From: Minisyncoccota bacterium
Lineage (GTDB): Bacteria > Patescibacteriota > Minisyncoccia > Phycocordibacterales > UBA1550
DNA length: 41,524 bases
NCBI GenBank assembly: GCA_023229865.1
Contig: JALNYL010000008.1
Span: 1-41,524 of the forward strand
Direction: 5' to 3'
Of the stretch, positions 17,776 through 39,302 are shown piece after piece. The notes beneath the pieces are model-generated. The model searched no databases. It was not told the origin of the DNA and worked only from the letters and a program-made list of their open reading frames with translations. Both the position numbers and the translations under genes were made by a program. The first letter of the stretch is position 1; every line of letters starts with the position of its first letter.

Positions 17776-20700
17776 ATGAGCATATTTCATCACAGCGCAG
17801 CGTGGATCGCAAAGCATAAATACCACCACCATGTTTTCTTTGGATCGCTTGCGTTTGTCTTTGCTTCGCTTGGTGTCTATGTGTACACAAATGATGTTGC
17901 GCGCGCTGCGACATACAATTTTGTGCAGGCTACGTGGGTTGGGGGAGTGACGGCAAATACCGCGACTCATACGAGCAATCAAACAGGCTGGACTCAGTAC
18001 TCTGCGGATTCAGGAACGATTCTTTCTGATATAAACGGCGTGAGCTTGCAGCCCACACACCACACCTTGCCCGATACGGGGTTTGTCGGAGGAACTCATG
18101 TTTCAACCACTGTTTCTGGTTCCGGAGCGGGGGCGACCGTGAGCATGATTCCTGTCGGCGTCCTCTCTACGCTTGGGGCAGGGACCATTACTGCAGGCAA
18201 CAGATCTCAAGGTGTTGCTGTTGCTCCAGAGGGAACAGCAGTGTATGTAGCAAACTATGGTGATGGTACGGTTTCTCAATACAGTCGCAATACTTCCACA
18301 GGAGCACTCACGTTCCTTGGTGCAGTGGGTGGGCTCAACACTCCTGTGGCAGTTGTCGTTTCTTCTGATGGAGCGTCGGTCTATGTGGCAAACTATGGAG
18401 GAAATAGTGTGACGGTTTTTGCTCGCAATATCGCAGCAGGGACACTCACATCCCTCGGGGCGGTAGCGGCAGGGACAGGTCCGAGCGGAATCAATATTTC
18501 CGCTGATGGTAAATCGGTGTACGTGACACACTCATTTGGTAGTGCTAATAACACTGTTCAGCAGTTTAGTCGCAATCTTTCAAATGGTACTTTGACCGCC
18601 CTTACTCCTGCGAGTGTCGCGACGGGGGTCAACCCTCAGGCGGTCGCTGTCTCTCCTGATGGCAATCATGTGTATGTTTCAAATACCACGAGTTCTTATA
18701 TTGATGAATTTGCTCGCAACACTACTACAGGGGCACTCACTTCTATTGGCACAGTTGTTTCAGGAAATAACGGATTTAGTATTGTTGTTTCTCCTGATGG
18801 CAATCATGTGTACTCTTCGCACTACGGCACGATCTATCAATACGCTCGTAACCCTTCGACGGGTATTTTGACCGCGCTTGTTCCAGGGACCGTTGCTGTC
18901 GGTGCAGCATCAAAGGGGATTGCGATTTCTCCTGACGGTAATTCTGTATACTCTGCAAATTCGACCGCAAATACCGTATCGCAACTCAGCCGCAACCCAG
19001 CAACAGGGCAGCTCACCGCTCTCAACCCAGGGACAGTCCTTACAGGAACAACCCCTACATGGGTAGCTGTTTCTCCTGATGGCAACTCAGTGTACGCCGC
19101 CAACAACTTCAACGGAACCAACGTACTCTCTATGTATACGCGTAGCAATTCTTCTACGGGTGTTTTCACCTCTCGCGTTATTGATACGGGGGCCGCTGTT
19201 GCGTTTACGACGCTTGCATACACTGCAACACTCAATGGCGAAACTATTACACTCGATGCACGCGCGGGTAATACGGCAACCCCTGATGGCACATGGACGG
19301 CATGGCAGCAGGGAATTGCGAGTGGGGGGACTATCGCGGGGCTTGCAGGAAATCGCTATATCCAATATCGCGCAAATTTCACAACAACGACCTCGGCGCT
19401 CCCTGTCCTCAACTCAGTGACTATTTCATACGATACGTATGCAACGACTGCAAATCTCACGTCATCTATCTATGATACCGAATCATCGGGCAACGTTTTT
19501 TCAAATGTTTTTTGGACTGCTTCAAATACGAGTGGTACCGAGTCAGTAAGATTCCAAATACGTTCATCTCCTGACGGTGCGACATGGACGGGTTGGTGTG
19601 GTGTTGCAAATACCTGTAACGGCAGTGATTACTTCACGGTCTTTTCGGGAGTAGTCGGTGGTATTTCTGTGGGGCACCCACTTATTACCGGTGGCGATGA
19701 TCGCTATATGCAATACAAGGTTTCGTTTACATCATCGGGTGTTGCGACTCCATTTCTTACTTCTGCAACACTTCAGTATATTGTGAATGGACCACCTGTC
19801 GTTTCAAACGTCGTGGCATCGCAAGCTTCTGATGGGTACGTGACGGTTACGTATGATGTTTCTGACGCAGACAACACCATTGGTAATACGGTTGACGTGA
19901 CACTTCAATACTGTACGACAAGCTGCGCTAGTGGTACTGAGGTGTGGGCAGATGCTGTGAGTGTGACGGGCGGGGTGGGGACAGGTACTCCTTTGGGAAC
20001 TGGGAAGAGTATTACTTGGAATCCTACTATTGATTATCCTTCGCAGTTTAAAGAAGGGGTTCAAAAGGTCCGGGTGAAGGCAGATGACCGCGCGACCTCA
20101 AACAATATTGCCTACGGAACCTCGGGGGCATTTACGTTGAGCACAATTCAGCCAGCAGTGACTGTAAGTATAAATTCCGCAGGGACACAAGACGTGGTGA
20201 CCATCACGGCGACAAGTGTCTTCACCCTTGAGTATCGCCTCTGCAACGCTTCAGATTTTACAGGGTGCGCTACGTGGACGCCAATCACTTCAGGTGTTGC
20301 AACTCCTGCAAACTGGTCAGCAACAGGAACACCAAACGCGGAGACGGTGTATTTGCAGGTTCGTGATCAGTATGGCAACACAACGTCGAGAACAATCGTC
20401 GCTCCCGCAATGCCAACAAGCCTTCTCGCTGCTGATGTTTCAAACCCAAGCGCGGGATCATTTGGTGAGACGGTGAGCTGGACGGTGGTACCAAACGCGG
20501 TTTCATATCGTGTTTACAGTGGCACCTCTTTGGATGTTTCAACTCCTCCTTCATCATACTCACTCCTCGCAAGCCCTGTGGCAAATATGTACAACCACAA
20601 CATTACTACCGCGACAACTTCTGCGTACTGGTATCGTGTTGCTGCAGTGAATACTAATGGTGATGTTTCAAACTTTACTACCGCAATGACAAATGGTGAT

Positions 20701-23070
20701 GTGCCTGATAGTTTTGGTACATCAGTTGCCGATACGACAGCTCCTGCATCTTCAAGTATCACCGCGCCGACCGATAACATCAGAAACACATCAGCTGCTG
20801 TTGCGTTTACTACAAACGAGCTCGCAACCGCCGAAGTTCTCTATGGGACGACACACGCGGCAAGCTGTAATTATGCAGGAACCCCGGTAAGCACCCCATA
20901 CTACGTGACATCACAGAGTGTAAATCTCACTGGCCTTACTTCAGATACTACGTATTACTTTTGTGTGAGAACAACAGACGTTCTTGGTAATGTGAGCGCG
21001 TGGGTTGATGGGGGATCGTTTACAACCCTCGGTGGACCTGTCATCACTGCTGTTGCCGACACCAACACCAACGACAATTCGACAACCATTTTCTGGAACA
21101 CTTCAACAAGTTCTGATTCGTACGTTTATTATTCAACAAGCCCATCACTCGCAAATCCTCAAGTCTCAGGGAGTTCGGCGATGGTTGCAGAGTCGGCAAC
21201 CCCTGGCATCTTCCAGCATCAAGTAGGCCTCTCGGGTCTCACTGCGGGTACAACGTACTACTATTCAGTGAAGTCGACCGACAGCTTGGGAAATATTACG
21301 ACCGACACAAAGGGTGGTGTTTACTATGATTTTGTAACAACTGTCGATACGACTGCCCCAGCGATTACCAACATCACGACCCCCGTAAAATCTTCGACTG
21401 CCGTCGTAATTGTGTGGGAGACTGATGAGCCTGCGACGTCGCAAGTCTTGTATGGATCCACCACGGGTGACCGCTCTCGTTTCTTGACTACGGACGCAAC
21501 GAAATCTATTTATCACGTAACGACACTTTCTTCGGCAACAACCAACAGTGGCGCAGCAGGAGGAACAAACGCACTTTCTCCAAGTACGACATACTACTAC
21601 GTCGTGAAGTCAGCTGACACGGCAGGGAATACTGCTACTTCAGCAGAGCAAACAGTTACTACTTCTGAGGCGGGTGCCGTTACTATTGTGACCGTTGTCT
21701 CAGGCGGCGGTGGAGGAGGTGGTGTCGCGGGTGACGCTACTCCTCCGGTGATTGCTGGGGTGAAGGTGAGTGAAGTTACGCCATTTGGTGCGACGGTGAC
21801 CTTTGAAACCAATGAGCAAGTCGTAAGTTTCGTTGAGTATGGCAAGGACACCGCGTACGGCGACAGCGCAGGAAGTTCTTCATATGCAAACAATCATACC
21901 GTTAAACTCCGTGGGCTCACGATGGGGACTGATTACCATATTCGTGTGAAAGCAGTTGACCGTGCGGGCAACATGAGCACTTCTGCTGATCAGACCTTTA
22001 AGACAAGTTTCATTTCTGAAAATCTTAAAGACTTCGCAAACATTGATAACATTGAAGCATTCCAGAAGGAAATCGAAAATGCTATTGAATCAATCCTCCC
22101 ATCGCTCGTACCACCGTTTGTTGCAAAGCCTCAAATCACCAACATCACTGAAGATGGTGCGACGGTAATATTTAGCACCAACATCAAGGCTTATCCAATC
22201 GTCGCCTTTGTGGAGGATAGCCTCTACGACGCTACCAAGGAAAATCCTTACACGAGCGAAATCTCTGATACAGAGAAGAAGGAAAATAATCACAAGATTG
22301 TCATTACCGGTCTCAAGCAGAATACCAAGTATCATCTCGATGCGCGCGCATTTTCGCTTCCTAAGGTTATTGGTAAGGCAGGTGATGTGACGTTTGTTAC
22401 TCAGGCTGCAAAGATTCAGGGTTCTATTGCGGAGCGCAAGAAGGATTCGTTTACCGTAGTTTGGGCAACAGAAGGCAAGACAACGTCGATCGTTGAATTC
22501 AAAAACACAAAGACAGGAATCACGGATCGCCGCACTGATAGTGCTAAGGCCACATCGCACTCAATGAGGATTGAAAACCTCCCTTCAGGCACGACCTTTG
22601 AAGTAAGCATCTCAGGGGTGAATGAGCAGGGGAACACGGTCGTCGCAGGGGCACCACTTATGGTGACTACATCACGCGACACGACCGCACCAGTAATTTC
22701 TGGATTCAAAGTCGACAACGCACTCGTTCCTGGTCGCACGGATCGCATCCAGACTATCGTTTCGTGGACAACTGACGAACCTGCAAATGCGACCGTCTAC
22801 TACGAAGAGGGTACTGGTCCACAAGACGACACAGAAGAGCTCGCCAATAAAAACGAAGCACTCGATGCGTATGTAGTGAACCACAGCGTCATCTTGCCAA
22901 ACTTGAAGCCAGGCACTATTTACCGCATCAAGGTAACCTCGGGCGATGATAGCGGCAACAAGGGTTCGTTTGGTCCACGTACGATCATCACCCCTCGTCA
23001 GACGGAATCAATCACGGATATCATCTTCAAGAACTTCGAAGATTCGTTCAAATTCCTTCGCAAAATCTAG
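17776..23070 (+). CDS. Giant membrane-anchored surface protein: 7-bladed beta-propeller plus multiple Ig/Fn3-like domains
   Basis: An N-terminal TM anchor is followed by seven repeats of about 45 aa of the xVAVSPDGxxVYVAN...RNxxTGxLT type (about 18200-19150). About seven Fn3-like modules with a TTAPxI...YG...YYY.V...D..GN pattern follow (about 20730-22990), with a Gly7 linker between them. Confidence 0.85.
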   Translation: MSIFHHSAAWIAKHKYHHHVFFGSLAFVFASLGVYVYTNDVARAATYNFVQATWVGGVTANTATHTSNQTGWTQYSADSGTILSDINGVSLQPTHHTLPDTGFVGGTHVSTTVSGSGAGATVSMIPVGVLSTLGAGTITAGNRSQGVAVAPEGTAVYVANYGDGTVSQYSRNTSTGALTFLGAVGGLNTPVAVVVSSDGASVYVANYGGNSVTVFARNIAAGTLTSLGAVAAGTGPSGINISADGKSVYVTHSFGSANNTVQQFSRNLSNGTLTALTPASVATGVNPQAVAVSPDGNHVYVSNTTSSYIDEFARNTTTGALTSIGTVVSGNNGFSIVVSPDGNHVYSSHYGTIYQYARNPSTGILTALVPGTVAVGAASKGIAISPDGNSVYSANSTANTVSQLSRNPATGQLTALNPGTVLTGTTPTWVAVSPDGNSVYAANNFNGTNVLSMYTRSNSSTGVFTSRVIDTGAAVAFTTLAYTATLNGETITLDARAGNTATPDGTWTAWQQGIASGGTIAGLAGNRYIQYRANFTTTTSALPVLNSVTISYDTYATTANLTSSIYDTESSGNVFSNVFWTASNTSGTESVRFQIRSSPDGATWTGWCGVANTCNGSDYFTVFSGVVGGISVGHPLITGGDDRYMQYKVSFTSSGVATPFLTSATLQYIVNGPPVVSNVVASQASDGYVTVTYDVSDADNTIGNTVDVTLQYCTTSCASGTEVWADAVSVTGGVGTGTPLGTGKSITWNPTIDYPSQFKEGVQKVRVKADDRATSNNIAYGTSGAFTLSTIQPAVTVSINSAGTQDVVTITATSVFTLEYRLCNASDFTGCATWTPITSGVATPANWSATGTPNAETVYLQVRDQYGNTTSRTIVAPAMPTSLLAADVSNPSAGSFGETVSWTVVPNAVSYRVYSGTSLDVSTPPSSYSLLASPVANMYNHNITTATTSAYWYRVAAVNTNGDVSNFTTAMTNGDVPDSFGTSVADTTAPASSSITAPTDNIRNTSAAVAFTTNELATAEVLYGTTHAASCNYAGTPVSTPYYVTSQSVNLTGLTSDTTYYFCVRTTDVLGNVSAWVDGGSFTTLGGPVITAVADTNTNDNSTTIFWNTSTSSDSYVYYSTSPSLANPQVSGSSAMVAESATPGIFQHQVGLSGLTAGTTYYYSVKSTDSLGNITTDTKGGVYYDFVTTVDTTAPAITNITTPVKSSTAVVIVWETDEPATSQVLYGSTTGDRSRFLTTDATKSIYHVTTLSSATTNSGAAGGTNALSPSTTYYYVVKSADTAGNTATSAEQTVTTSEAGAVTIVTVVSGGGGGGGVAGDATPPVIAGVKVSEVTPFGATVTFETNEQVVSFVEYGKDTAYGDSAGSSSYANNHTVKLRGLTMGTDYHIRVKAVDRAGNMSTSADQTFKTSFISENLKDFANIDNIEAFQKEIENAIESILPSLVPPFVAKPQITNITEDGATVIFSTNIKAYPIVAFVEDSLYDATKENPYTSEISDTEKKENNHKIVITGLKQNTKYHLDARAFSLPKVIGKAGDVTFVTQAAKIQGSIAERKKDSFTVVWATEGKTTSIVEFKNTKTGITDRRTDSAKATSHSMRIENLPSGTTFEVSISGVNEQGNTVVAGAPLMVTTSRDTTAPVISGFKVDNALVPGRTDRIQTIVSWTTDEPANATVYYEEGTGPQDDTEELANKNEALDAYVVNHSVILPNLKPGTIYRIKVTSGDDSGNKGSFGPRTIITPRQTESITDIIFKNFEDSFKFLRKI

Positions 23071-29111: not shown

Positions 29112-30128
29112 ATGGAGCAACAACAAGAACAAAAAGAAACAAGCCGTCCTTCGGGGTTTTTGTCTTCTCTTGGTATCGTGGAACATAAATCAAAAATGAT
29201 GCTCTTTGCATTACTTTTGTTGGTGCTTTCTTCTGCAATCATTTCTTTTTGTCTGATGGCACCGTTTGGGGCCCCAAGTGACGTGACGGTGGATATCAAG
29301 AAGGGGGCGTATCTCACGGAAGTTTCGAGTATGCTCTATGATGCAAATCTTATTCGTTCACGTGTTGCATTTGAGACTTGCGCAAAAATTGTAGGCGGAG
29401 AGAAGCCTGTTGTTGCGAGCTCATATCTTTTTAAAGAACCGCTTTCTGCGTGTGGTATTGCTCTTCGTATTGCACAGGGGATCTCAGGCAAGCCACCTGT
29501 GCGCGTGACGGTCCCCGAGGGAATGTCCAACCAAGAGATGGCTATCGTCCTCGCAAAAGCTTTTCCTGAGTTTAATCGCAATGCTTTTTTTGAGGAGTTT
29601 AGCTCTGACGAAGGATTTCTTTTCCCTGACACGTATTTCTTTTCTGAAGACACAACGATCGATACAGTAGGGAAGACAATGCTTGCGAATTTTAATAAAA
29701 GGATAACCCCGCTTTTGGATGACATCATTGCGTCGGGTCGCCCACTTCGCGATGTGGTTATTATGGCGTCGATTATCGAAAAGGAGGCTTTGACCGAAGA
29801 GGACAAAGCACTTGTATCGGGGATTCTTTGGAAGCGTATCGAAAAAGGGATGCCCCTTCAGGTAGATGCGACATTTATGTATCTCCTTGGCAAAAAATCG
29901 AGCGAGCTCACGCTGGGGGATTTGCAGATGAAGTCTGCGTACAATACATATCAGAACAAAGGCCTCCCTGTGGGACCTATTGGCAACCCGGGCGTTTCTG
30001 CTCTTAATGCCGCGATTCATCCGACTTCATCGCCATATCTCTACTACCTCTCCGACAATGATGGTGTGATGCACTACGCAAAGACGTTTGAAGAGCACAA
30101 GGCGAATAAGGCGAAGTATCTTAGGTAG
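29112..30128 (+). CDS. mltG: Endolytic murein transglycosylase MltG (YceG-like)
   Basis: It has an N-terminal TM helix and YceG motifs (ASIIEKEA, MPLQVDATFMY, YNTYQNKGLPVGPIGNPG). Confidence 0.9.
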   Translation: MEQQQEQKETSRPSGFLSSLGIVEHKSKMMLFALLLLVLSSAIISFCLMAPFGAPSDVTVDIKKGAYLTEVSSMLYDANLIRSRVAFETCAKIVGGEKPVVASSYLFKEPLSACGIALRIAQGISGKPPVRVTVPEGMSNQEMAIVLAKAFPEFNRNAFFEEFSSDEGFLFPDTYFFSEDTTIDTVGKTMLANFNKRITPLLDDIIASGRPLRDVVIMASIIEKEALTEEDKALVSGILWKRIEKGMPLQVDATFMYLLGKKSSELTLGDLQMKSAYNTYQNKGLPVGPIGNPGVSALNAAIHPTSSPYLYYLSDNDGVMHYAKTFEEHKANKAKYLR

Positions 30129-30204
30129 TTTTGACAGGATTGTTACGATATGTCATGCTCGTAAAAGGTGGTCTTTTTCAAATAATCTAGCTGAGGAGGC
30201 ATCG

Positions 30205-30513
30205 ATGCGGAAGTTTAAAAGTGGTGACCTGGTATGGCTGACTAAATTTGCGTTAAGCAAAGATGGTCTCGGGGGTAAGGACTATGTTCCAAATTCTTGC
30301 ACAGGGAAGTTGCTGCAAGGATATGCAATTAAGGTGCATGATTCGGTATCCGTAGTTGAGGGGTCAAAAGCATACTCTGTCCGTTTTGAAGGGGGGTCGT
30401 ATTCGCTTTCCGCTTCCCATTTTGAACTTGCACTTGCGAATAAGAGGAAGGTCCCGTTCGAAATTCTCGTTGAGAGATTTTTGAGAAGCGCGTTCAAATC
30501 ATTCAGCGCTTAA
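30205..30513 (+). CDS. Hypothetical small protein (102 aa)
   Basis: I chose internal ATG 30205 because GAGGAGG lies 5 nt upstream. It has its own terminator at 30526-30561. Confidence 0.55.
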   Translation: MRKFKSGDLVWLTKFALSKDGLGGKDYVPNSCTGKLLQGYAIKVHDSVSVVEGSKAYSVRFEGGSYSLSASHFELALANKRKVPFEILVERFLRSAFKSFSA

Positions 30514-30525
30514 CTTATGTTGTTT

Positions 30526-30561
30526 TATCCGAGCAGAAGCAAATTGCTCGGATAGTTTTTT
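30526..30561 (+). terminator. Rho-independent terminator
   Basis: Stem tatccgagca/tgctcggata has a 9-nt loop and a T6 tract. Confidence 0.8.
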
Positions 30562-30593
30562 GAGGAGATAATTATTTGTCTCTTTAAAAAACT

Positions 30594-31676
30594 ATGAACA
30601 AAAAAACTAAAGGCAAAGTATACGTCGGTATGTCGGGCGGAGTAGATAGCTCGGTTTCCGCTGCGCTCCTCAAGAAGGCAGGATATGACGTGACAGGAGT
30701 TTTTATGAAGGTGTGGCAGCCGGACTTTTTGCCATGCACGTGGCGCGAGGAGAGACTCGATGCGATGCGTGTCGCTGCGACTCTCGGCATTCCGCTCCTT
30801 ACTTGGGATTTTGAAAAAGAATACAAAGAAGGTGTTGCGGATTATATGTTTCGCGAATACAAAGCAGGTCGCACTCCCAACCCCGACGTGATGTGTAATC
30901 GCGAAGTGAAGTTTGGTGCGTTCTTCCGTCGTGCGATGGCCGAGGGTGCAGACTTTGTGGCGACGGGGCACTATGCGCAGTCAGTGCTTGATAAAAAGAC
31001 TGGGGCCACAATGATGCTCAAAGGCGTTGATGATGCGAAGGACCAATCATACTTCTTATGGACACTCGGACAGTCACAACTCTCAAAAACATTTTTCCCC
31101 ATCGGTGGTTACAAAAAATCCGCCGTGCGCGCACTTGCAAAGAAGTTTAACCTTCCCGTCGCTGAGAAGAAAGACAGTCAGGGGCTCTGCTTTGTGGGCA
31201 AGCTCGATATGAAGGATTTCCTCGCGCACTTTATCGAAGAGAAAGAGGGAAGTGTTTTGAATGAGCAGGGTGAAGTAATCGGCACACACCGTGGCGCGTA
31301 TTTCTATACACTCGGTGAGCGTCACGGATTTTTGATTACAAAAAAGAGTGCCGAAGACACCCCTTACTACATTGTCGCAAAAGATTTTGAAGCAAACACA
31401 ATCACTGTCGCGCACCAGGGCAAAAAGGACTTGGGATGCGCGTCACGTGATATCAGCGTTACGCAGGCAAGTTTTTGTCGTGGCGTATTGCCAGAGATAA
31501 AAAAGAATTACACCGTGCAAGTGCGCTATCACGGCGAGCAGTATAAATGCAAAATTGTTTCCTTCGGTGACAACGTTTTTTCGCTTCGTCTCGAGAAACC
31601 AGCCGTATTCGACGTAGGACAATCCGTGGTTCTTTACGACGGCAAAGAATGTCTCGGTGGTGGGATTATTGGGTAA
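30594..31676 (+). CDS. mnmA: tRNA 2-thiouridine(34) synthase MnmA
   Basis: It has the PP-loop VGMSGGVDSSVSAALL and the catalytic Cys regions (NPDVMCNREVKF, SQGLCFVG). Confidence 0.95.
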   Translation: MNKKTKGKVYVGMSGGVDSSVSAALLKKAGYDVTGVFMKVWQPDFLPCTWREERLDAMRVAATLGIPLLTWDFEKEYKEGVADYMFREYKAGRTPNPDVMCNREVKFGAFFRRAMAEGADFVATGHYAQSVLDKKTGATMMLKGVDDAKDQSYFLWTLGQSQLSKTFFPIGGYKKSAVRALAKKFNLPVAEKKDSQGLCFVGKLDMKDFLAHFIEEKEGSVLNEQGEVIGTHRGAYFYTLGERHGFLITKKSAEDTPYYIVAKDFEANTITVAHQGKKDLGCASRDISVTQASFCRGVLPEIKKNYTVQVRYHGEQYKCKIVSFGDNVFSLRLEKPAVFDVGQSVVLYDGKECLGGGIIG

Positions 31677-31707
31677 TTATGCTACTGAGCTGAACTACCG
31701 CGCTATC

Positions 31708-31736
31708 TTGACTTTATGTTATCAATATGCTATAGT
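31708..31736 (+). promoter_or_regulatory. Near-consensus promoter TTGACT-N17-TATAGT with TGC extension
   Basis: The -35 is at 31708-31713 and the -10 at 31731-31736, about 60 nt upstream of ATG 31796. Confidence 0.65.
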
Positions 31737-31795
31737 TCTAGGGTCAGGAATGTCACTTTTCCTTTGAAAAAGGTTCTTGATAAAGGAGGGAACAA

Positions 31796-32086
31796 ATGCA
31801 ACAAACAGCAATGAGTGCAGCGCTTGTAAAAGCGGGCCTGGTAACCGAAGTTCAAGTAGTGAGGGCAGAGAACGTCCGACATCATCTGCAACCCTATGCT
31901 GGGCAGATTATGGAGATTAAACGATTAACCACATTGTTTTCTCAGGAGGGGGTGGAAATGTCGTTGCTTGATATCGGGACTACTGTAGCTTTTGAGGCCA
32001 TGGTCAAACGTAAGGAGTACGATGAAGCCTACGAGATGATGCTTACGCATTTGAAGAAGGTCGCGGCTAAGCACGGTCTCGTTTAG
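31796..32086 (+). CDS. Hypothetical small protein (96 aa) carried on the insert in the mnmA 3' end
   Basis: It has SD AAGGAGGG 5 nt before the ATG, plus its own promoter and terminator. Confidence 0.6.
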   Translation: MQQTAMSAALVKAGLVTEVQVVRAENVRHHLQPYAGQIMEIKRLTTLFSQEGVEMSLLDIGTTVAFEAMVKRKEYDEAYEMMLTHLKKVAAKHGLV

Positions 32087-32126
32087 TCTGACATAAAAGG
32101 AGGGTTCAATCATGGAGACATGACAT

Positions 32127-32157
32127 GCCGGCGCTAAATGTGCCGGCTTTCTTTTTT
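32127..32157 (+). terminator. Rho-independent terminator
   Basis: Stem gccggcgc/gtgccggc has loop taaat and tail tttctttttt. Confidence 0.8.
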
Positions 32158-32222
32158 GATCGTGGACAATCAGTGGTGCTCTATGACGGGAAGGAGTGTT
32201 TGGGGGGGGAATCATTGAATAG
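32155..32222 (+). pseudogene. Displaced relic of the mnmA 3' end
   Basis: It translates FDRGQSVVLYDGKECLGG, against FDVGQSVVLYDGKECLGGGIIG in mnmA. It loses frame in the G8 run 32202-32209, and one extra G restores LGGGIIE-stop. Confidence 0.75.
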
Positions 32223-32235
32223 AATATTGAATTTG
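32215..32235 (+). repeat. NNNGAAT heptamer array (3 units)
   Basis: The sequence is ttGAATaGAATattGAATttg and contains the 11-mer GAATATTGAAT shared with 33463, 39134, 39155 and 39272 (reverse). Confidence 0.6.
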
Positions 32236-32261
32236 ACGCATTCATGCGGTCGTGGTAGTTA
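32233..32261 (+). promoter_or_regulatory. Promoter TTGACG-N17-TAGTTA with TGG extension
   Basis: The -35 is at 32233-32238 and the -10 at 32256-32261, about 40 nt upstream of ATG 32301. Confidence 0.6.
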
Positions 32262-32300
32262 TTATAAGAGATTAACCTAAATCTGATAAAGGGGAACGTA

Positions 32301-32510
32301 ATGGCTCTCGTTGAGATTGGTTCAAGAAAGGTTCCAGATGATGAAGGCGGGTGGTATTGGATGAAATGGGCAAACGGACCATGGGAACCCGCTCTTGTTC
32401 AGCCCGCAAAAGATGGGGAAACACCAAAGATTTTTCTTTCGAAAACTGCGGTTGCGGTGACTCATCCGTATCTTCGTTGGGGACATCAAATCTTCCCTCC
32501 GGAGAAATAG
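32301..32510 (+). CDS. Hypothetical small Trp-rich protein (69 aa)
   Basis: It has SD AAAGGGGAA 5 nt before the ATG, plus its own promoter and terminator. Confidence 0.55.
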   Translation: MALVEIGSRKVPDDEGGWYWMKWANGPWEPALVQPAKDGETPKIFLSKTAVAVTHPYLRWGHQIFPPEK

Positions 32511-32536
32511 GGGCGTGGAAACACGCTCCTTTTTTA
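32509..32536 (+). terminator. Rho-independent terminator
   Basis: Stem aggggcgtg/cacgctcct (one G-T pair) has loop gaaa and a T-tract. Confidence 0.75.
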
Positions 32537-32583: not shown

Positions 32584-33450
32584 ATGACCAACGGACTTCA
32601 GAAAGATATTTGGGTGCTCAAGACTTCGGGGCAGATGGAAAAATTTTCACTCGAGAAGCTTCGCCGTTCACTCACGCGCTCAAAGGTTGATGAAGAAACC
32701 ATCGACCGCATTATCGATCACATCCTCCCTGAGCTTCATAATGGGATGAAGACTGCGCAAATCTATAAGCACGTTTATTCAATACTTAAGAAAAAAAGAT
32801 ATCCTGCGGCGGTGCGCTACTCACTTCGCAAAGCAGTGATGGAGCTCGGGCCAAGTGGTTTTCCTTTTGAAAAATATGTCGCCGAGGTGATGAAAATGAA
32901 GGGGTTTAAAGCGGAGACAGGCGTCATTCTTCCGGGCTTTTGTGTTTCGCACGAGGTAGATATTTTACTCGAAAAGGGTGATCGACATATTTTTGCTGAG
33001 TGTAAATTTCATAATCAGCAGGGGATAAAGACCGATGTGAAAGTGGCGCTCTATGTGCACGCACGCTTCCTTGATTTGAAGAAGGCTCACGACGAGGCAC
33101 ACAAAACTCATACGGACGAGACGAGGAAGATTCATGAGGGGTGGCTCATTACCAACACCAAGCTTTCTCTCGATGCTATCCAGTATGCAAATTGCGCAGG
33201 CCTCACCGTGATCGGATGGGATTACCCCGAAGAGGGGAATCTCCAAGACCTCATTCTTGAGACGGGCGTACACCCGCTCACGTTCCTCACGACCCTTAGT
33301 CAAGCAGACAAGAAGAATCTTCTCGAGCAGGGAGTTGTGATGTGTCGCGATATTACTATTGGTAATGAATTATTGAAGGCGATAGGGCTTCCTGATGAGA
33401 GGGTTGAGAAGGTGGTGGCGGAGGCTAAGAAGGTTTGCCAAGAGTTCTAG
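32584..33450 (+). CDS. ATP-cone domain fused to a PD-(D/E)XK (Mrr-like) nuclease fold
   Basis: The N-terminus shows an ATP-cone pattern (IWVLKTSGQMEKFSLEKLRRSL...AQIYKHVYSIL). The nuclease-like core is FEKYVAEVMK...HEVDILLEKGDRHIFAECKFH. Confidence 0.75.
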   Translation: MTNGLQKDIWVLKTSGQMEKFSLEKLRRSLTRSKVDEETIDRIIDHILPELHNGMKTAQIYKHVYSILKKKRYPAAVRYSLRKAVMELGPSGFPFEKYVAEVMKMKGFKAETGVILPGFCVSHEVDILLEKGDRHIFAECKFHNQQGIKTDVKVALYVHARFLDLKKAHDEAHKTHTDETRKIHEGWLITNTKLSLDAIQYANCAGLTVIGWDYPEEGNLQDLILETGVHPLTFLTTLSQADKKNLLEQGVVMCRDITIGNELLKAIGLPDERVEKVVAEAKKVCQEF

Positions 33451-33480
33451 GGGTAGAATTTGGAATATTGAATATAGAAT
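33450..33480 (+). repeat. NNNGAAT heptamer array (4 units) starting GGGGTAGAAT
   Basis: The sequence is ggggtaGAATttgGAATattGAATataGAAT, directly after the stop codon. It is the same family as 39129-39166 and 39266-39302. Confidence 0.65.
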
Positions 33481-39128: not shown

Positions 39129-39169
39129 GAATAGAATATTGAATGTTGAATATGGAATATTGAATAATG
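39129..39169 (+). repeat. NNNGAAT heptamer array (6 units), left arm of an inverted pair
   Basis: The sequence is gaatagaatattgaatgttgaatatggaatattgaataatg, starting 2 nt after the KH stop. Positions 39145-39169 match the reverse complement of 39268-39292 at 21 of 25 positions by hand alignment. Confidence 0.7.
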
Positions 39170-39265: not shown

Positions 39266-39302
39266 TTCTGTATTCAATATTCTAAATTCAACATTCTACC
39301 CC
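39266..39302 (-). repeat. NNNGAAT heptamer array (5 units), right arm, inverted
   Basis: The reverse complement reads ggggtaGAATgttGAATttaGAATattGAATacaGAATg. It ends 1 nt before the trmD ATG. Confidence 0.7.

Follow-up and report, generated by a model that had tools for sequence, protein, structure and literature searches.

Prophages, integrative and conjugative elements, integrative and mobilizable elements and genomic islands insert into the 3' end of tRNA or protein genes and carry a replacement end with them. Site-specific elements of this kind have a recombinase in or next to the insert, an identical attL/attR core, a foreign/native boundary inside the repeat and constant ends. Here, we describe a locus of Candidatus Yonathbacteria, an uncultivated bacterium of the candidate phyla radiation (CPR), in which the 3' end of mnmA, the gene for tRNA 2-thiouridine synthase, is found twice, once on either side of a small expression unit, referred to below as the cassette, that carries a 96-codon gene, orf96. 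The stretch analysed, contig JALNYL010000008.1 of assembly GCA_023229865.1 over its 41,524 nucleotides, is called the window throughout. We propose that the locus is probably the scar of homology-facilitated illegitimate recombination (HFIR) in the Yonathbacteria chromosome, and not the footprint of a dedicated integrating element, a reading that draws on comparison of natural sequences.

The studies of HFIR are said to include those of de Vries and Wackernagel in 2002 on Acinetobacter, of Prudhomme et al. in 2002 on S. pneumoniae and of Meier and Wackernagel in 2003 on P. stutzeri, and C-terminal displacement with orphan arrays was reportedly described by Jackson et al. in 2009. According to the citing passages of PMC5361080, HFIR was demonstrated experimentally in these three kinds of transformable bacteria (see also PMC3240628). 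The mechanism has moreover been put forward to explain orphan genes and 3' ends moved out of place at type VI secretion system (T6SS) and Rhs loci (Kirchberger et al. 2017, PMC5361080).

The last 23 codons of mnmA (31608 to 31676, stop counted) recur at 32155 to 32222, in direct orientation and 547 nt apart, and a codon-by-codon comparison of FDVGQSVVLYDGKECLGG (31608 to 31661) with FDRGQSVVLYDGKECLGG (32155 to 32208) found 17 of 18 residues identical. The downstream copy loses its frame in a run of eight G (32202 to 32209), where one extra G restores ...LGGGIIE-stop. Once this 1-nt gap is closed, the copies agree at 48 of 69 nt (70%), the longest identical run being 8 nt, and 17 of the 21 differences fall at third codon positions (binomial P = 1e-5); counted by codon, 15 differences are synonymous (stop included) and 2 are non-synonymous. 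Such a bias towards third positions implies that both ends diverged while translated, in separate genomes, and an origin of the two ends in different lineages explains why their divergence is mostly synonymous. The tail, which is among the most conserved parts of MnmA, reached a best ungapped BLOSUM62 score of 90 against the 1.5 kb downstream, far above chance (24.2 +/- 3.2 with a maximum of 39 for 300 shuffled controls; 30 for the best match elsewhere in the window). No other coding-level short direct repeat of this sort was found in the window, where the mnmA repeat is unique of its kind, and neither the window nor 43 loci from other assemblies contained a further gene-end duplication; a second mnmA tail occurred in 0 of these 43 loci. 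A preliminary description of this DNA, made from the sequence alone, had reported a recurrence that probably starts at 32155, a frame lost in the G run and repaired by one G, mainly synonymous differences and two termini shaped by protein-level constraint, and had advised shuffled controls and a search for other gene-end duplications. The formal alignment bore out each of these observations, and the two checks gave the results just stated. The features on which the argument depends are the following.

30594 to 31676, forward strand: mnmA, intact, 360 amino acids (aa), assigned from its Pfam domains and MnmA identity.
31325 to 31676, forward strand: phylogenetically discordant 3' third of mnmA, putative donor-derived homologous anchor; left boundary approximate.
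31608 to 31676, forward strand: copy 1 ("type 1"), the working end of the gene, made up of its last 22 codons, FDVGQSVVLYDGKECLGGGIIG, and the stop.
31677 to 31705, forward strand: 29-nt spacer from the mnmA stop to the cassette promoter, by alignment (2 nt only in L074).
31708 to 31736, forward strand: cassette promoter TTGACT-N17-TATAGT (TG-extended), found by scan and conserved in L074, L075, L081 and L079.
31737 to 31795, forward strand: leader with a conserved hairpin-like CACTTTTYC..GAAAAAGG segment and the Shine-Dalgarno (SD) sequence AAGGAGGG (31783 to 31790), by alignment.
31796 to 32086, forward strand: orf96, a small protein of 96 aa, predicted all-helical, of an uncharacterised family.
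32096 to 32123, forward strand: conserved 3' element, SD-like AAAGGAGGG and a three-codon mini open reading frame (ORF), ATG GAG ACA TGA (32112 to 32123).
32127 to 32157, forward strand: intrinsic terminator of the cassette, with its stem at 32127 to 32147 and a T-tract to 32157 that overlaps the start of copy 2.
32155 to 32222, forward strand: copy 2 ("type 2"), the original end of mnmA in its displaced position, reading FDRGQSVVLYDGKECLGG up to a frameshift; a pseudogene fragment.

The ancestry of the end that mnmA now uses was assessed against the two closest backbones of the window. One is L077, a 6.1-kb contig and the closest backbone relative (86% identity for p414, 83% for the ATP-cone gene and 87% for MgtC), and the other is L002. 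Sliding identity against single relatives was too noisy, and a three-taxon informative-site test was used instead. Over mnmA codons 1 to 248, the window paired with L002 at 67 sites and with L077 at 46 sites, and L077 paired with L002 at 47; over codons 249 to 360, the same counts were 32, 22 and 55, making the window the outgroup (chi2 P = 5e-4). The pairing of L077 with L002 is the majority class in none of the genes p414, yceG, ATP-cone, mgtC, 8xMP and alaS. The maximum-chi2 breakpoint lies near 31325, and 4 of 1000 permutations reached the observed chi2. In the 5' part of mnmA, the nearest neighbours of the window are L002 (85%) and L077 (82%), and in the 3' part the window has no close neighbour (at most 71%), L077 and L002 still being mutual nearest at 76%. 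The functional 3' third of mnmA thus appears to be foreign, beginning ~280 nt upstream of the repeat. The preliminary description held that the functional terminus had arrived with the insert; its foreign origin is supported by this discordance, and its arrival with the insert corresponds to one of the two orders of events weighed below, which are equally parsimonious.

The opposite end of the locus can be read against an empty site. In L077 the gene order is yceG, mnmA, orf69, ATP-cone gene, orf96 being absent, so that mnmA runs directly into the orf69 promoter. The native end of L077, ...TGTTTGGGGGGAGGGATCATCGAGTAG AATATGGAATTTGACGCA..CGTGGTAGTT..AAGGGGAAGTTATG, in which the stop TAG precedes AATATGGAATTTGACGCA, aligns base for base with copy 2 of the window, the AATATTGAATTTGACGCA motif, the GTGGTAGTT box and the start of orf69. 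Because copy 2 is collinear with this intact end and with the orf69 promoter, it is the original mnmA terminus, as the preliminary description, which also recommended a search of relatives for empty sites, had supposed. Over the last 63 nt, type 2 has its best match in L077, at 49/63 positions, type 1 matches L077 at 46/63, and the nucleotide identity of the tail alone does not discriminate its origin. The native flank comprises three features.

32220 to 32300, forward strand: native sequence downstream of mnmA, with a TAGAATATTGAATTT motif and promoter-like TTGACG (32233 to 32238)..GTGGTAGTTATTAT before orf69.
32301 to 32510, forward strand: orf69, the small gene resident in the slot; a terminator of its own lies at 32509 to 32530.
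32584 to 33450, forward strand: ATP-cone / Mrr-like nuclease / AF1548-like C protein (Pfam), the conserved right flank.

L077 shares the native sequence at 32220 to 32300, and L004 and L003 share parts of it. Homologues of orf69 were found only in L077 (66%) and L076 (87%), two among 5.8e9 proteins. The preliminary description had also noted that copy 2 runs into GAAT heptamers of the type that follow gene ends, and such heptamers are indeed enriched after stop codons (12 matches versus 2.3 expected from shuffles).

Three other sequences carry one or both joints: L001 (Logan SRR18595301, 1644 bp, 99.94% identical to the window and possibly from the same sample), L076 (ENA ERZ27247363) and L074 (NCBI GCA_013565735.1, 506 bp), the last two being clearly different strains. 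Both junctions are spanned by L001, and the right one is present in L074 and also in L076, which has copy 2 as well. The right junction, CTTTTTTGATCGTGGACAATCAG, is common to the window and these three sequences and hence goes back to a single ancestral event. The window cassette is homologous to those of L075, L081 and L079 across the T-tract as far as ~32158, and the match to mnmA begins at 32155. The two overlap in TTTG(A), a TTTG/TTTTG microhomology that is compatible with HFIR, although 4 to 5 T-rich bases are expected often by chance. At the corresponding place, 68 nt before the stop, native mnmA reads ...GTNTTTGAT... (L077, L075). An extension of the repeat upstream of 32155 into the terminator (PA..FFFD versus KPAVFD) was considered and rejected: the stretch matches the cassette terminators of L075, L081 and L079, and PAFFFD was not found in any MnmA examined. 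The left side is a native-to-foreign gradient inside mnmA rather than a junction, followed past the stop by the 29-nt spacer and the promoter; the sequences there are TAA+TTATGCTACTGAGC in the window type and GAATAG+GTCTTGACA in the L074 type.

These strains also give evidence of later changes. The G run of copy 2 is G8 in the window and G8+AGG in L076, and the corresponding stretch of the intact type-2 end upstream of the L074 cassette reads in frame, GGGTGGGGG; its indel state varies among strains, and copy 2 is unconstrained and would be decaying by homopolymer indels. The window and L076 are identical over ~950 nt save for 34 differences clustered in 32343 to 32501, a 160-bp patch in orf69 that is a short recombination tract from a diverged allele. 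Divergence between the window and L074 is ~22% in 31706 to 31940 and ~5% in 31940 to 32168. Altogether, the mosaic patterns of L076 and L074 indicate that short tracts from diverged alleles are exchanged at the locus.

Between the two copies lies one full expression unit with promoter, SD sequence, 96-aa ORF and terminator, as already described from the sequence alone, and both the promoter and the terminator were recovered by signal scan. The insert encodes orf96 only. The search for this ORF elsewhere, which had been recommended, brought out a family that is small yet genuine, with 3 clusters among 5.8e9 proteins and 19 matches among 1.84e9 representatives, all of 80 to 98 aa, with an N-terminal half that is variable in all homologues. 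The protein is predicted to be all-helical (AF2 pLDDT 82) and has no match in PDB folds, Pfam, PHROGs, PADLOC or NCBIfam; the cassette has none in phage or plasmid collections, its leader has none in Rfam (which was also empty across the window and the locus), and a scan of JGI metagenomes with the orf96 alignment gave none. A metagenome scan with the junction motif TAGAATATKGAATTTGACGC gave one match (L078), a chance match inside an unrelated large ORF.

In L075 (60% aa identity) and L081, the orf96 unit, from promoter to terminator, stands in the same place, with mnmA on one side and the ATP-cone gene on the other, in both cases without a duplicated mnmA tail and without orf69. Members of the family stand in other contexts in L079 (33.6% GC), L082, L083 and L084, and the same promoter-to-terminator boundaries are kept across several unrelated contexts. 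The terminator stem shows compensatory changes in L075 and L079. The 3' element is conserved above the coding sequence across the window, L074, L081 and L079 (~90% between the window and L081, versus ~45% aa for orf96), and an analogous element is present in L082 and L083. Its mini-ORF, preceded by an SD-like AGGAG, ends ~3 nt before the terminator stem and takes the forms ATG GAA GCA TAA and ATG GAT GAA TGA in distant members. This SD and mini-ORF pair looks like a translation-coupled terminator or anti-terminator device, which could gate read-through into the next gene. In L079 and L080 (Logan SRR21621035/38), where the contig begins at the cassette promoter, the leader and 3' element are as in the window, and the cassette adjoins a NAD-kinase-like gene and genes matching Pfam FlhD and FlhC. 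In L084 (NCBI GCA_042568055.1, 36.9% GC), the family member lies in a run of ~10 small ORFs without Pfam match, together with an SNase-domain gene, surroundings that may be a phage-like or accessory region.

We propose a model of HFIR at mnmA based on the following: (i) the incoming DNA would have come from a related, more distant Yonathbacteria lineage and would have brought the donor mnmA 3' third with its type 1 end, the 29-nt spacer and the orf96 unit from promoter to terminator; (ii) on the left, an ordinary homologous crossover would have taken place inside mnmA, at a point put near 31325; (iii) on the right, where there was no homology, the end of the T-tract would have been joined illegitimately via TTTG/TTTTG to the recipient mnmA, 68 nt before its stop; and (iv) the last 23 codons of the recipient (type 2), the GAAT motif and orf69 would have been pushed 547 nt downstream, leaving a type-2 fragment that would no longer be translated and would decay by homopolymer indels. 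The mnmA gene would stay intact because the donor supplied a functional end. Two marks of HFIR are found at the locus. A donor-derived homologous anchor would lie beside the insert, the 3' third of mnmA being discordant and its 5' part and the flanking genes not, and recipient sequence, the 68-nt mnmA end, is duplicated at the joint. By analogy with Saccharibacteria, another CPR group in which natural competence has been shown (PMC10633639), entry of the DNA by natural transformation is plausible.

Several observations weigh against this model. L074 starts with ...YDGKECLGGGIIE-stop, a type-2 end directly upstream of the cassette with a 2-nt spacer, and at least one further recombination event is therefore needed. 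The left junction was seen in the window and in L001 only, possibly the same sample, and the microhomology of the right joint, only 4 to 5 nt and T-rich, is weak evidence alone. The discordance test compares three taxa that are 15 to 35% diverged; the C-terminal domain evolves faster, and a faster rate particular to the window lineage could imitate part of the signal. The comparisons brought out no donor lineage. In an unlikely alternative, the same right join was made with another order or direction of events. In one version, both partners of the event belonged to the type-2 lineage, one having the cassette behind its type-2 mnmA and the other orf69, so that both tails were type 2; later, the window lineage took on a divergent allele by ordinary homologous recombination, which replaced the last third of mnmA, the spacer and the cassette as far as ~31940, its left half. 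In the other, the incoming piece was a tail fragment with orf69, anchored on the right in the ATP-cone gene and added behind a resident cassette. The upstream tail of L074 is identical to copy 2 of the window at 39/41 nt (95%), and L074 ends with the same terminator and TTTGATCGTGGACA, that is, with the same right junction; both ends of its contig fall within the mnmA tail, as if two near-identical copies had broken the assembly, which we infer. The drop in divergence from ~22% to ~5% near 31940 is consistent with a crossover in orf96, and exchange of such tracts at the locus is attested by the mosaic patch in orf69. However, this drop could also reflect the fast-evolving N-terminal half of the orf96 protein, and a different order gains nothing in economy: whether the window state or an L074-like state is primary, two events and the same two kinds of donor are needed, so that both orders are equally parsimonious. 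The second version is the less likely of the two, because orf69 and its context are shared with L077, the closest backbone, and the discordance lies on the mnmA side and not in the ATP-cone gene.

The remaining alternatives depart further from HFIR. The preliminary description saw in the locus the architecture left by an element integrating into a gene 3' end, and the cassette would then be a small non-autonomous element, inserted site-specifically into the mnmA 3' end with a replacement end and with its integrase encoded elsewhere. Direct repeats of a conserved gene end flanking a compact unit, the empty site in L077, and a family that keeps its boundaries across several unrelated contexts, one of them a genome of 33.6% GC, would all suit such an element, and integration hot spots have been reported near mnmA in Erysipelothrix (PMC12785378). 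We nevertheless consider it very unlikely, and the comparison contradicts the earlier view at several places. When every sizeable ORF of the 41.5-kb window was compared with Pfam, no integrase, transposase or resolvase came up, the lack of an integrase in the insert having been noted from the start, and no tRNA lies in the window. Between the copies there is no identical att core (8 nt is the longest shared run, at 70% identity); the foreign/native boundary, near 31325, falls outside the repeat by ~280 nt; the right junction is T-rich. The ends do not recur, since the L075 and L081 cassettes occupy the same slot without repeats and the left junction is a 29-nt spacer behind type 1 in the window versus a 2-nt spacer behind type 2 in L074. 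Neither phage nor plasmid collections returned a match. Two classical kinds of small element were also rejected. In an integron gene cassette, the ORF lacks a promoter and carries an attC site at its 3' end, and intI and attI are adjacent; here the unit has its own promoter, its 3' hairpin is a terminator made of a 21-nt GC stem and a T-tract, and no IntI was found among the sizeable ORFs of the window. An insertion sequence or a miniature inverted-repeat transposable element has terminal inverted repeats and a short target-site duplication; no terminal inverted repeats flank 31677 to 32154, and the duplication is 68 nt long and diverged. A mobile CPR "expression cassette", moved via its conserved 3' element or via gene ends, with the mnmA repeat as a target duplication, is compatible with the identical boundaries of the family in unrelated contexts, including the 33.6% GC genome, and is in our view a doubtful candidate of low probability. 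A local origin, in which the mnmA end was duplicated in tandem or by slippage and the copies then diverged, would account for two copies in direct orientation, 547 nt apart, in this lineage only; it is highly improbable, as copy 2 is untranslated and yet 17 of the 21 differences (P = 1e-5) are at third positions, and decay in situ would strike all codon positions equally. Moreover, the native downstream context sits at copy 2 and not at copy 1, and the mnmA 3' third is discordant. Finally, the metagenomic source and its evident strain mixtures could suggest an assembly chimera joining the mnmA ends of two strains, but this is scarcely credible given that the right junction and copy 2 recur in L001, L076 and L074, from different archives and, for L076 and L074, clearly different strains, and that L001 spans both junctions.

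HFIR at this locus would have added a gene to a slot whose content varies between lineages. The window MnmA has the Pfam tRNA_Me_trans HUP, PRC-barrel and C-terminal domains (E 2e-74, 1e-18 and 2e-13), and its closest matches are metagenome-assembled genomes of Candidatus Yonathbacteria / Paceibacterota with at most 86% identity, the host being Candidatus Yonathbacteria. No exact copy of it is on record, no mnmA relative above 86% identity was found, and the type-2 ending occurs in 0 of the 120 best matches. The order yceG, mnmA, gap, ATP-cone/Mrr-like gene, mgtC, (8xMP), alaS is kept in ~30 relatives, and the gap between mnmA and the ATP-cone gene ranges from 19 to ~1080 bp. It holds a 123- to 161-aa family in L002, L004 and L022, a 224-aa ORF in L010 and membrane proteins in L015, and is without a gene in L005, L008, L013 and L018. 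Because different lineages hold different small genes there, this interval is a variable small-gene slot. L014 and L017 are likewise among the Yonathbacteria with unrelated small genes in it.

Some observations concern the surroundings of this slot. A promoter-like TTGACGCA...GT(G)GTAGTT just past the mnmA stop is common to the window, L077 and L004, and L004 keeps it despite a different downstream gene (a 128-aa family versus orf69). Tandem heptamers of the TTGAATA/TGGAATA type (TAGAATATTGAAT...) are found in the window at 32220 to 32234, 33454 to 33475 and 39132 to 39167 on the forward strand and at 39270 to 39298 on the reverse strand. They begin at or just past the stops of mnmA (original end), the ATP-cone gene and khpA, lie inverted upstream of trmD, and also follow the mnmA stop in L003, L019, L021, L075 and L077; a lineage-wide intergenic signal, a protein-binding site and a termination-related motif are the candidates for their function. 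The ATP-cone fusion protein (32584 to 33450) has a weak PADLOC match to the Csx1 "ARF+nuclease" model (E 5e-4) and may be a nucleotide-sensing nuclease.

On the other side of mnmA, a window-specific ORF lies between yceG and mnmA (30129 to 30593, ~103 aa from the ATG at 30202; listed as 30088 to 30513 from a TTG) and has its own terminator-like hairpin; the same spacer measures 25 to 150 bp in relatives. The ORF has no homologue in ~75 related loci and no family match. This interval is a second variable small-gene slot, without gene-end duplication. The rest of the window is housekeeping DNA (ATP synthase, LeuRS, AlaRS, TrmD, KhpA, YchF). An AI-2E family transporter appears to be split into two overlapping ORFs (246 to 650 and 647 to 1276; Pfam profile positions 3 to 87 and 127 to 326), which could be due to a frameshift, a pseudogene or a sequencing error. 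A 1764-aa ORF (17776 to 23070) with many internal repeats, of SPDG..VYVAN-type beta-propeller-like and TTYYY..D..GN units, is probably a surface protein.

Our study provides a base-resolved natural case of gene gain in an uncultivated, reduced-genome CPR bacterium without mobile-element machinery, in which an empty state (L077), an occupied state (the window) and independently diverging strains (L076 and L074) can be compared. The scar and the mosaic tracts suggest that the variable small-gene slots of Yonathbacteria owe their shape to recombination with diverged relatives, which would probably follow the uptake of DNA. They also call for caution, a duplicated gene end not always being an att site. 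As the mechanism is known, the value of the locus is that of a well-documented case and not of a new principle; the more unusual findings are to its side, namely the element of conserved mini-ORF and terminator in the cassette family and the GAAT heptamers that follow stop codons.

Compared with integrative elements, the locus shares the direct repeat of a gene 3' end flanking the insert, the gene kept intact by the insert and the empty site in relatives; unlike them, it has no integrase, no identical att core, foreign DNA well upstream of the repeat, an insert of only 0.5 kb and junctions that vary between strains. It is also reminiscent of the Rhs, CdiA and T6SS effector-immunity loci, where a new 3' end and a small gene arrive and the old end is shifted downstream, untranslated. 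In those loci, however, each end encodes a variable toxin domain paired with its cognate immunity gene, and displacement has occurred repeatedly and under selection, whereas here the end is that of a conserved housekeeping gene, the event is single, and orf96 shows no toxin, immunity or defence signature (Pfam, PADLOC, NCBIfam). HFIR itself was observed experimentally and would be read here from the natural genomes of an uncultivated CPR bacterium, and a deletion is more commonly reported with it than a duplication such as that of the 68-nt gene end. The likeness lies in the one homologous anchor (here, the mnmA 3' third), the other end, which would be joined at a few bases of microhomology, the foreign non-homologous DNA trapped between them and the recipient sequence duplicated at the joint, with neither recombinase nor att site. 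The kind of mechanism is already known, and the mnmA locus is a new instance of it in the CPR.

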